Sequence record: PP400788
DNA length: 64,000 nucleotides
Direction: 5' to 3' (one strand)
Source: Escherichia phage FL33
The position numbers and the translations under genes were made by a program. Shown in pieces: positions 5,482-6,310 of the stretch (position 1 is its first letter; every line of letters begins with the position of its first letter). The notes under the pieces are model-generated. The model was not told where the DNA came from and searched no databases. It saw nothing but the letters and a program-made list of their open reading frames with translations.

Positions 5482-5557
5482 TGGTCGAGGCAGTAGGGAT
5501 CGAACCTACGACCCAGGACTTAGAAGGTCCTTGCTCTTCCTTCTGAGCTATGCCTCG
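5482..5557 (-). tRNA. tRNA-Arg (anticodon UCU)
   Basis: 76-nt cloverleaf: acceptor 5486-5492/5551-5557 fully paired, T-loop fwd GATCGAA, anticodon stem 5515-5519/5527-5531, loop CUUCUAA, CCA encoded (fwd TGG 5482-5484). Confidence 0.85.
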
Positions 5558-5561
5558 TATT

Positions 5562-5636
5562 TGGCGGACGTGATAGGATTCGAACCTATAACCAATCGCT
5601 TAACAGGCGATCGCTCTGCCATTGAGCTACACATCC
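5562..5636 (-). tRNA. tRNA-Asn (anticodon GUU)
   Basis: 75-nt cloverleaf: acceptor 5566-5572/5630-5636 (one G-U), T-arm ATAGG-ATTCGAA-CCTAT, anticodon stem 5595-5599/5607-5611 perfect, loop CUGUUAA, CCA encoded. Confidence 0.75.
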
Positions 5637-5640
5637 AAAT

Positions 5641-5727
5641 TGGTGGGGAGTGGTGGAGTCGAACCACCCGAGTCGCAATGACAATGGATTTACAGTCCAC
5701 ACCGCTACCTCTACGGGATAACTCCCC
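5641..5727 (-). tRNA. tRNA-Tyr (anticodon GUA), long-variable-arm type
   Basis: 87 nt: acceptor 5645-5651/5721-5727 perfect, T-arm GGTGG-AGTCGAA-CCACC, anticodon stem 5684-5688/5696-5700 (one G-U), loop CUGUAAA, CCA encoded. Confidence 0.7.
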
Positions 5728-5736
5728 AAATTAATT

Positions 5737-5811
5737 TGGTGGCCCTGGGTGGAATTGAACCACCATCTGGCGATTATGAGTCGCTTGCTTGAACCTTCCA
5801 GCTACAGGGCC
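5737..5811 (-). tRNA. tRNA with anticodon CAU (Ile-lysidine type or Met)
   Basis: Acceptor 5741-5747/5805-5811 perfect, T-arm GGTGG-AATTGAA-CCACC, anticodon loop CUCAUAA; position corresponds to T4 tRNA-Ile. Confidence 0.75.
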
Positions 5812-5812
5812 T

Positions 5813-5888
5813 TGGTGCTGATTGACGGAATTGAACCGCCGACCTTCTCATTACAAGTGAGTTGCTCTACCTACTGAGCTAAATCAGC
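5813..5888 (-). tRNA. tRNA-Thr (anticodon UGU)
   Basis: Acceptor 5817-5823/5882-5888 perfect, T-loop fwd AATTGAA, D stem GCTC/GAGC, anticodon loop CUUGUAA, CCA encoded. Confidence 0.8.
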
Positions 5889-5894
5889 AAAATC

Positions 5895-5984
5895 TGGCGG
5901 AGGCGATAGGATTTGAACCTATGAGTCGCCGGAGCGACTGCCGGTTTTCAAGACCGGTGCATTAAACCACTCTGCCACGCCTCC
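5895..5984 (-). tRNA. tRNA-Ser (anticodon UGA), long-variable-arm type
   Basis: 90 nt: acceptor 5899-5905/5978-5984 perfect, T-arm ATAGG-ATTTGAA-CCTAT, variable-arm hairpin GTCGC/GCGAC, anticodon stem CCGGT/ACCGG, loop CUUGAAA. Confidence 0.85.
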
Positions 5985-5986
5985 AG

Positions 5987-6060
5987 TCTCCGTGGCAGGA
6001 TTTGAACCTGCGACATTCTGCTCCCAAAGCAGACGCTCTACCAAACTGAGCTACACGGAG
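5987..6060 (-). tRNA. tRNA-Pro (anticodon UGG); CCA not encoded
   Basis: Acceptor 5988-5994/6054-6060 perfect, T-arm GCAGG-ATTTGAA-CCTGC, anticodon stem TCTGC/GCAGA, loop UUUGGGA; abuts tRNA-Ser with a 2-nt spacer (dimeric precursor arrangement as in T4). Confidence 0.85.
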
Positions 6061-6073
6061 TAAATTAAATTTG

Positions 6074-6144
6074 AGCGGATAATGAGAATCGAACTCACAT
6101 CATCAGATTGGAAGTCTGAGGTAATGCCATTATACGATATCCGC
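6074..6144 (-). tRNA. tRNA-Gly (anticodon UCC); ends approximate
   Basis: Acceptor 6075-6081/6138-6144 perfect, T-loop fwd AATCGAA, anticodon stem TCAGA/TCTGA perfect, loop CUUCCAA; no encoded CCA. Confidence 0.75.
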
Positions 6145-6149
6145 AAATT

Positions 6150-6236
6150 TGGTGCGAGAAGTGGGACTCGAACCCACAAGGAAATCATTCCGCAGCATTT
6201 TAAGTGCTGTGCCTTTACCAATTTGACCATTCTCGC
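6150..6236 (-). tRNA. tRNA-Leu (anticodon UAA), long-variable-arm type
   Basis: 87 nt: acceptor 6154-6160/6230-6236 perfect, T-arm GTGGG-ACTCGAA-CCCAC, anticodon stem CAGCA/TGCTG, loop CUUAAAA, CCA encoded. Confidence 0.85.
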
Positions 6237-6237
6237 G

Positions 6238-6310
6238 CTGGGAATAAAGGACTCGAACCTTTGCATCCTGGAATCAAAATCCAGTGCCTTACCAACTTGG
6301 CTAATTCCCA
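6238..6310 (-). tRNA. tRNA-Gln (anticodon UUG); CCA not encoded
   Basis: Acceptor 6239-6245/6304-6310 perfect, T-arm AAAGG-ACTCGAA-CCTTT, anticodon stem CTGGA/TCCAG, loop UUUUGAU; separated from tRNA-Leu by 1 nt. Confidence 0.85.

Follow-up and report, generated by a model that had tools for sequence, protein, structure and literature searches.

A ten-tRNA array with tRNA-Tyr and tRNA-Asn in Escherichia phage FL33, very probably the segB-free form of the T4-like coliphage tRNA operon

The T4 map lists eight tRNAs, and tRNA-Tyr(GUA) and tRNA-Asn(GUU) are, as an earlier note on this DNA had said, not among them. In Escherichia phage FL33, both genes belong to a ten-gene array on the minus strand at positions 5482–6310 of the 64,000-nucleotide stretch of DNA analysed here (PP400788; the whole stretch is referred to as the window). 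This arrangement raises the question of what the two genes are, what T4 carries in their place, and what they may contribute to infection.

ARAGORN and the Rfam tRNA covariance model (RF00005) yielded the same ten tRNA genes. All lie on the minus strand, in the order Gln (UUG; 6237–6310; 67.4 bits), Leu (UAA; 6150–6236; 59.3 bits), Gly (UCC; 6071–6144, ARAGORN 6073–6144; 63.3 bits), Pro (UGG; 5986–6060; 72.4 bits), Ser (UGA; 5895–5984; 62.6 bits), Thr (UGU; 5813–5888; 72.9 bits), a tRNA with a CAU anticodon (5737–5811; 59.9 bits), class II Tyr (GUA; 5641–5727; 30.3 bits), Asn (GUU; 5562–5636; 74.1 bits, the highest of the ten), and Arg (UCU; 5482–5557; 65.8 bits). All ten reached the RF00005 gathering score, nine of them with 59–74 bits and E values of 1e-10 to 1e-14, which reproduces the coordinates and anticodons earlier obtained by manual folding and includes both the Tyr and the Asn candidate. 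The same ten tRNAs appear in the tRNAscan-SE annotation of the GenBank record of Escherichia phage FL34, a Tequatrovirus that is 100% identical here. The genes are tightly packed, with spacers of 0–12 nt by ARAGORN boundaries rather than the 1–13 nt first given. Structures were taken from the ARAGORN and Rfam models, as unconstrained minimum-energy folding is uninformative for tRNAs; it gave a near-cloverleaf for the CAU tRNA and other folds for Tyr and Arg, with z values of −1.5 to −2.9.

The identity of the CAU tRNA, left as Ile or Met in the earlier reading, is most likely tRNA-Ile2, the lysidine-dependent reader of AUA. The tools labelled it Met from the anticodon alone. The determinants of TilS and IleRS are the acceptor pairs C4-G69 and C5-G68 together with an anticodon arm of the E. 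coli ileX/ileY type. Both acceptor pairs are common to the CAU tRNA and E. coli K-12 tRNA-Ile(CAU), and in the alignment of the two the anticodon stem-loop GCGACTCATAATCGC is identical throughout. Furthermore, its best E. coli matches were all annotated as tRNA-Ile (5413 of 5426 genomes), which favours Ile over Met. By analogy with T4 and E. coli, the tRNA would be expected to carry the lysidine modification. Amongst phages, it is 100% identical to its RB3 counterpart, 98.7% to that of rV5 and 62% to T4 tRNA-Ile.

Comparison with the T4 region (NC_000866, 70.9–72.5 kb) localized the difference between the two phages. The flanking genes are shared and near-identical, and the first six tRNAs are the same (85–100% identity); the replaced cassette begins at nucleotide 13 of the CAU tRNA and runs through Arg. 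T4 has the gene order Ile, segB, Arg, rnaD, rnaC, with segB, which is 666 bp long and encodes a GIY-YIG homing endonuclease, taking up the space between Ile and Arg; T4-type Ile, segB and T4-type Arg replace the CAU, Tyr, Asn and Arg genes of the window. The Arg genes of the two phages can be aligned only in the anticodon loop, the T-arm and CCA. A tblastn search with SegB detected no segB in the tRNA region and none elsewhere in the window, where it found only two other GIY-YIG seg-type genes (31–50% identity).

The closest described counterpart is the tRNA cluster of phage RB3 (AJ884578), reported together with that of RB1 (AJ884577) by Brok-Volchanskaya et al. (2008, Nucleic Acids Res 36:2094, PMC2330249). 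The window array is collinear with it at 98.1% identity over 1218 bp, rnaD and rnaC included, and in both phages trna.2 and e.8 enclose the genes from Gln to Arg, followed by rnaD and rnaC, and segB is absent. The two phages are 100% identical in seven of the ten tRNAs, among them CAU, Asn and Arg. RB3 differs in carrying another tRNA-Pro allele (85.1%), in tRNA-Thr (93.4%), and downstream of the rnaC terminator, where the window has an extra 157-aa open reading frame and RB3 runs on to e.8. We conclude that the array is very probably the T4-like coliphage tRNA operon in its segB-free allelic form, of which RB1 and RB3 gave the first sequences. T4 differs through another Ile-to-Arg cassette, composed of T4-type Ile, segB and T4-type Arg.

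Two further relatives bracket this comparison. T2L (AJ880101) has the CAU-Tyr-Asn-Arg order of the window, though it lacks Thr and carries two extra open reading frames inside the cluster (trna.1 and trna.2 in AJ880101). T6 (AP018814; Chihara et al. 2026, Nat Commun 17:3468, PMC13096335) is intermediate, with T4-type Ile, Tyr, segB and T4-type Arg; segB stands where the window has Asn, directly beside Tyr, and Pro and Ser are missing. Across the phage collection, the Tyr-Asn cassette occurred in ~435 records and full-length segB in ~126, making the segB-less form ~3.5 times commoner among sequenced relatives. To call the array "expanded", as was done before, is misleading, since the ten-tRNA form is the commoner allele among these relatives and was described in 2008. 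An apparent insertion of ~426 bp in the NBG2-type array proved to be an artefact of two joined BLAST pieces, and its tRNA layout and spacing are those of the window. When host sequences were searched for relatives of Tyr-Asn, nearly all matches were plasmids of 90–113 kb with a Tyr-Thr-Asn block, and no chromosomal tyrT or asnT was found at E ≤ 1e-5. Nothing in the sequence of the window contradicts reading the array as a segB-free operon.

The differences between alleles of Gln, Pro and Tyr kept base pairing. tRNA-Leu is 100% identical to both T4 and RB3, tRNA-Gly is 97.3% identical to T4 and 98.6% to RB3, and tRNA-Thr is 94.7% identical to T4. tRNA-Gln is 100% identical to RB3 and 89% to T4; six of its eight differences from T4 are compensatory, in three anticodon-stem pairs, and the remaining two fall at loop positions 32 and 38. 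tRNA-Pro, at 85.1% identity to T4 as well as to RB3, departs from T4 by compensatory changes in the anticodon stem and T-stem, and by two acceptor-stem changes in which G.U in T4 is G-C in the window. tRNA-Ser is 100% identical to RB3 and, like T2L and RB3, has CCA(G) encoded; T4 tRNA-Ser lacks the CC of CCAG, which appears as a 2-nt gap in the alignment with the window and is also reported in PMC2330249. tRNA-Arg is the RB3/T2L-type isoacceptor allele (100% identical to RB3).

An obvious use for such an array is codon supply. The open reading frames of the window contain, per 1000 codons, 42.9 Tyr, 59.0 Asn, 15.1 AUA and 12.4 AGA, and Tyr and Asn usage is about 1.5 times that of E. coli if Kazusa codon frequencies for E. 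coli K-12 are taken for the host. The array tRNAs would read the A-ending codons UUA, GGA, CCA, UCA, ACA, AUA, AGA and CAA as well as Tyr and Asn codons, and may in this way supply decoding capacity for which an AT-rich phage has greater need than its host. In T4, transcription of the tRNA genes gives a polycistronic precursor, which host enzymes cut into mature RNAs. From this knowledge of T4 and E. coli, we infer that the window array is likewise co-transcribed, processed and aminoacylated. Judging from its position, an intrinsic-terminator-like hairpin followed by a T run (minus strand, 5143–5166; 10 pairs, 7 of them G-C) is where the tRNA/rnaD/rnaC transcription unit probably ends. A promoter scan returned no more sigma-70-like sites than in shuffled sequence, and none was assigned.

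Alternatively, Tyr and Asn could benefit the phage mainly through counter-defence, with the phage genes replacing host tRNAs cut by immune nucleases. Septu and the PtuAB of retron-Eco7 target tRNA-Tyr, and Septu (PtuAB) cuts it in the variable arm, at C48 (PMC13096335). In the same study, T6 tRNA-Tyr was detectable on Northern blots and its dosage rescued infection under Septu, whereas T4, which has no tRNA-Tyr, was unable to escape Septu and was the most sensitive phage (PMC13096335). The window gene matches that of T6 at 86 of 87 positions, including the whole of the variable arm that Septu cleaves, the sole difference being an anticodon-stem G.U pair exchanged for G-C; by this likeness, the window tRNA-Tyr may also counter Septu. 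On the other hand, Septu also cleaves T6 tRNA-Tyr, which acts via dosage, and its anti-Septu role was shown mainly with overexpression or amplification (PMC13096335). In T6, amplification of Tyr is driven by SegB, an option that a segB-less phage does not have, and the window holds a single tRNA-Tyr copy with no segB to amplify it. Given that T6 tRNA-Tyr is cleaved and that its role was established largely by overexpression, single-copy tRNA-Tyr in a segB-less phage may, by analogy, protect only weakly.

The case for tRNA-Asn is of a different kind. The PARIS effector AriB cleaves host tRNA-Asn(GUU) at U36AAUC|C41, and the anticodon arm of the window tRNA-Asn, U36AAGC-G41, departs from this published host sequence at positions 39 and 41. 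Substitution at positions 39 and 41 confers resistance on T5 tRNA-Lys, and because the same two positions differ here, the window tRNA-Asn(GUU) could be read as a nuclease-resistant replacement tRNA, with segB alleles under a trade-off; we consider this rather unlikely. If it were true, segB homing, which removes tRNA-Asn and in T4 also Tyr, would impose an immune-evasion cost, and segB-plus and segB-minus alleles would be held by a trade-off between selfish spread or amplification on one side and loss of protective tRNAs on the other. tRNA-Asn is only a secondary target of AriB, however, and is dispensable for T4 rescue, and the high Tyr and Asn codon use of the phage by itself fits codon supply. 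Taken over both tRNAs, we regard counter-defence as a possible but somewhat doubtful main benefit. The two roles are not mutually exclusive.

The absence of Tyr and Asn from T4 can be attributed to segB, which sits where those genes lie in the window. The tRNA-Asn gene itself offers a point of entry. It has a GUU anticodon, a G73 discriminator and a canonical ARAGORN cloverleaf, and with its flanks is 100% identical to tRNA-Asn of both RB3 and T2L; T2L tRNA-Asn is the gene in which the 27-bp preferred SegB site was mapped, with a GGTTCRANTCC core and a CCAR end, and homing of segB from T4 into T2L has been demonstrated (PMC2330249). By this identity, the 3' part of the window tRNA-Asn holds the predicted preferred SegB recognition and cleavage site (minus strand, 5560–5586), starting with the T-arm motif GGTTCGAATCC and finishing in CCAA, with its exact 27-bp ends inferred; the window matches the site sequence exactly at one place only. 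Because the preferred site is contained in an intact tRNA-Asn, an FL33-type phage co-infecting with a segB-carrying phage would be a homing recipient and would lose the cassette. Since the Ile and Arg genes of the T4 type are divergent alleles, the segB cassette itself probably derives from a different lineage.

The opposite direction, in which Tyr and Asn are recent gains of this phage lineage rather than losses from T4 through segB invasion, appears quite unlikely. tRNA genes do move between phages, and the CAU and Tyr tRNAs of rV5 (Vequintavirus) are 98.7% and 97.7% identical to those of the window; the window CAU and Arg alleles are also strongly unlike those of T4. Recent gain, however, fits poorly with the ~3.5-fold excess of the segB-less form noted above, with the preferred SegB target inside Asn, which is the signature expected of an empty site, and with the retention of Tyr directly beside segB in T6; moreover, recent acquisition of segB by T4 was the conclusion reached in PMC2330249. 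Loss from T4 is the favoured direction, albeit unproven.

It could also be supposed that the Tyr candidate is a decayed, non-functional tRNA-like sequence. It barely passes Rfam (30.3 bits, cut-off 29; E = 0.027), has one atypical C.C mismatch in the D-stem, and does not form a cloverleaf when folded to minimum energy without constraints (z = −1.5). We attribute the low score to the long variable arm together with this mismatch. Bacterial tRNA-Tyr is identified by a GUA anticodon, a long variable arm, G1-C72 and A73, and all four of these elements are present in the window gene, whose ARAGORN cloverleaf includes a 3-bp variable-arm stem. Among the window, T6, T2L and RB3, variation in tRNA-Tyr is limited to changes between G-C and G.U within stems. 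The gene was found at ≥80% coverage in 607 phage records and kept ≥95% identity in ~500 of them, unrelated rV5-like phages included. T6 tRNA-Tyr does appear less stable than that of the host (PMC13096335), but it is this tRNA, 1 nt different from the window's, that was seen on Northern blots and rescued infection under Septu. Decay of the Tyr gene is thus very improbable.

We can give next to no credence to the proposal that Tyr and Asn are functional tRNAs at the place where T4 has the degenerate, tRNA-derived stable RNAs rnaC and rnaD: T4 indeed lacks both tRNAs and rnaC bears a tRNA-like T-arm motif (GGTTCGAATCC, at 5229–5239 in the window homologue), but in T4 the two RNAs lie downstream of Arg and segB occupies the Ile–Arg interval, the window has both at the same place, immediately downstream of its own tRNA-Arg, and neither aligns along its length with Tyr or Asn. 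The homologues, mapped from the RB3 annotation, are rnaD (species 2 small stable RNA; minus strand, 5361–5480; 98.3% identical to RB3 and 85.8% to T4) and rnaC (species 1 small stable RNA; minus strand, 5215–5354; 99.3% and 97.8%). BLAST of the window Tyr against the T4 region gave no match anywhere, and Asn matched only generic D-arm and T-arm motifs of 10–18 nt, leaving no Tyr or Asn remnant in T4. The alignment including rnaC and rnaD that the earlier note had suggested as a check hence sets them apart from Tyr and Asn, and together with BLAST it rules out either RNA as a degenerate form of these genes.

The arrangement found in FL33 is already known: sequences of RB1, RB3 and T2L annotated with it date from 2008, and hundreds of Tequatrovirus genomes carry it, again with annotation. 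Aspects of its biology have likewise been studied, namely the SegB homing target in tRNA-Asn and the action of tRNA-Tyr against Septu. What the analysis adds is largely a correction of perspective. T4 is the atypical member, in which Tyr and Asn are replaced by segB; these two tRNAs do not have degenerate counterparts in rnaC and rnaD; and the CAU tRNA, routinely called Met in such genomes, looks like an Ile2-type, AUA-reading tRNA. A segB-free phage with a complete tRNA-Tyr and tRNA-Asn pair offers a natural test case for single-copy protection against Septu- and PARIS-type defences.

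By ARAGORN, the 64-kb window contains exactly ten tRNA genes; they lie together at 5482-6310 on the minus strand and are transcribed in the order Gln(UUG), Leu(UAA), Gly(UCC), Pro(UGG), Ser(UGA), Thr(UGU), CAU, Tyr(GUA), Asn(GUU), Arg(UCU). All ten also reached the gathering score of the Rfam tRNA model, and the coordinates, anticodons and tight spacing given in the earlier note are all right. Nine of the ten genes scored 59-74 bits; tRNA-Tyr scored 30.3 against a cut-off of 29, which we attribute to the long variable arm and single D-stem C.C mismatch of its cloverleaf. This local ARAGORN fold is a class II structure with G1-C72, A73 and a good T-arm, and that of tRNA-Asn is a textbook cloverleaf with discriminator G73. 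Just past the small stable RNA gene rnaC, at 5166-5143 (−), there is a strong hairpin that resembles a terminator and runs into a stretch of T; promoter-like matches were no commoner than in shuffled sequence, and no promoter was assigned to the operon.

Comparison with T4 showed a replaced cassette between nearly identical flanks. The T4 reference annotation reads Gln, Leu, Gly, Pro, Ser, Thr, Ile, segB, Arg, rnaD, rnaC, with the Ile-Arg interval occupied by segB, a 666-bp GIY-YIG homing endonuclease gene. While the flanks of the alignment are nearly identical (Leu and Ser 100%, Gly 97%, Thr 95%, rnaC 98%, rnaD 86%), the stretch from 12 nt into the CAU tRNA (5737-5811, −) to the 3' end of Arg is replaced, holding T4-type Ile, segB and T4-type Arg in T4 and CAU, Tyr, Asn and Arg in the window. 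T4 Ile and the CAU tRNA share only 62% identity, and the two Arg genes can be aligned in the anticodon loop, T-arm and CCA only. BLAST against the T4 tRNA region returned no match for tRNA-Tyr (5641-5727, −) and only generic arm motifs of 10-18 nt for tRNA-Asn (5562-5636, −). The earlier note had proposed that Tyr and Asn sit where T4 carries its stable RNAs, as functional counterparts of genes that have decayed in T4. Gene order, alignment and BLAST together leave this reading unsupported: T4 rnaD and rnaC lie downstream of Arg, as do the window's own copies (rnaD, 5480-5361, −; rnaC, 5354-5215, −), and the T4 Ile-Arg interval is segB, with no such relics found by BLAST. T6 has an intermediate form, consisting of T4-type Ile, Tyr, segB and T4-type Arg.

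The array is a segB-free, RB1/RB3-type tRNA operon of a Tequatrovirus. Brok-Volchanskaya et al. (2008) determined the tRNA-region sequences of T2L, RB1 and RB3; segB is absent from these phages, and an isoacceptor Arg accompanies tRNA-Met(CAU), Tyr and Asn (PMC2330249). RB3 (AJ884578) has the gene order of the window, rnaD and rnaC included, at 98.1% identity over 1218 bp, with seven of the ten tRNAs 100% identical. The preferred SegB cleavage site is a 27-bp sequence within the tRNA-Asn gene, with the T-arm core GGTTCRANTCC and the end CCAR (PMC2330249). Since tRNA-Asn and its flanks (86 nt) are 100% identical in T2L, RB3 and the window, the mapped site is intact here, as an exact match at 5560-5586 on the strand of tRNA-Asn (−). 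Nine copies of the core are present across the window, every one of them inside the operon (eight of the ten tRNAs, plus rnaC), relative to a shuffled-sequence mean of 0.16. Within rnaC it forms a perfect tRNA T-arm motif, GGTTCGAATCC, at 5229-5239 (−); as the SegB recognition consensus has this motif as its conserved core, rnaC may be a secondary SegB site.

This operon form is ordinary and already known; the earlier note was correct in its observation and partly wrong in its interpretation. Escherichia phage FL34 (PP400789), a T4-like Tequatrovirus, is 100% identical to window 5000-6800, and its record already lists the same ten tRNAs from tRNAscan-SE annotation. A seg-type gene 36 kb from the array is also placed in FL34 where the offset predicts, and the window is therefore collinear with that genome. 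The same 1.8-kb query was covered to at least 80% by 456 phage records, nearly all at 95-99% identity. At that coverage, 435 phage records hold the Tyr-Asn cassette and 126 hold T4 segB, making the ten-tRNA form the commoner allele and T4 the exception; tRNA-Tyr, counted alone, is held by 607. Homing of segB from T4 into T2L is nearly 100% efficient and replaces the recipient's tRNA markers, and the 2008 authors concluded that segB is a recent acquisition of T4 (PMC2330249). We likewise consider acquisition of segB by T4 the likely direction of change.

Two further free-standing GIY-YIG seg-type genes (Pfam SegE_GIY-YIG) lie at 40549-41250 (−) and 46080-46697 (+), their aligned parts being 50% and 31% identical to SegB; the former is annotated segD in RB18, and just 54 phage records have it. 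A 157-aa ORF of unknown function (4617-5090, −; phrog_2280, E 1e-59) separates the rnaC terminator from an e.8-like ORF. RB3 homology ends at 5134 and the equivalent place in T4 spans only ~285 nt, which marks this ORF as a variable inserted gene adjoining the operon. It is also carried, with annotated flanking terminators, by NBG2, a phage with the same array layout and spacing.

Differences between alleles carry signs of selection on tRNA structure. The tRNA-Gln allele (6238-6310) is distinct from that of T4 (89% identity), with stem differences that keep base pairing: six of the eight differences make up three compensatory anticodon-stem pairs, and the remaining two fall in the loop, at positions 32 and 38 (U32/U38 in the window, C32/C38 in T4). 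tRNA-Pro (5986-6060) is likewise a distinct allele with pairing preserved (85% identity). Ten of its eleven differences fall in stems and one in the variable region; the anticodon-stem and T-stem differences are compensatory, and the two acceptor-stem differences each turn a G.U pair into G-C. As this allele is also unlike that of RB3, the operon combines alleles as a mosaic. tRNA-Tyr shows only G-C to G.U changes across the window, T6, T2L and RB3. Judged by sequence, the array members are working tRNA genes.

The CAU tRNA is labelled Met by the tools and most GenBank records, on its anticodon alone. Every E. coli relative carries the annotation tRNA-Ile; 5413 of 5426 genomes have matches, at a median of two each. 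Aligning it with tRNA-Ile(CAU) of E. coli K-12 revealed an identical anticodon stem-loop, GCGACTCATAATCGC, and shared acceptor-stem pairs C4-G69 and C5-G68, which are determinants for lysidine synthase and IleRS. The most likely identity of the CAU tRNA is thus an Ile2-type tRNA that reads AUA, similar to T4 tRNA-Ile but a different allele.

Related genes also occur outside the T4-like phages. In the unrelated Vequintavirus rV5 (DQ832317), tRNA-Tyr (1201-1287) and a CAU tRNA (1772-1846) are 97.7% and 98.7% identical to their window counterparts, and all rV5 tRNAs (Arg, Tyr, Ser, Thr, CAU, Pro) are of isotypes that the window also has. The likeness between rV5 and the window suggests tRNA gene exchange between distinct coliphage genera. 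E. coli matches to the Tyr-Asn query were on plasmids in 273 of 275 places, and none fell in chromosomal tyr or asn tRNA genes at E <= 1e-5. Among the matches listed, a Tyr-Thr-Asn block 81-84% identical to the query (e.g., NZ_CP019027.1, 104808-104966) is on plasmids of 90-113 kb, possibly phage-plasmids.

Counted over 65 long window ORFs, Tyr codons reach 42.9, Asn 59.0, AUA 15.1 and AGA 12.4 per 1000, compared with 28.6, 39.3, 4.4 and 2.1 for E. coli K-12 in the Kazusa table. These excesses (~1.5-fold for Tyr and Asn, 3-6-fold for AUA and AGA) fit the classical codon-supply role of T4 tRNAs. A role against host defence has also been described for T6 tRNA-Tyr. Septu EcB88 cuts tRNA-Tyr at C48/A49 in the variable arm, and T6 tRNA-Tyr rescues infection when overexpressed or SegB-amplified; T4, which has no tRNA-Tyr gene, cannot escape Septu, whereas T2 is resistant (Chihara et al. 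2026, PMC13096335). The window tRNA-Tyr matches that of T6 at 86 of 87 positions, with an identical variable arm and a single anticodon-stem difference (G.U in T6, G-C in the window). PARIS AriB cuts host tRNA-Asn(GUU) at U36AAUC|C41, and mutation at positions 39 and 41 protects T5 tRNA-Lys (PMC12409363). The window tRNA-Asn reads U36AAGC-G41 in this arm, with G at both 39 and 41, unlike the cleaved host tRNA; as a candidate nuclease-resistant tRNA against PARIS AriB, it is only a lead.
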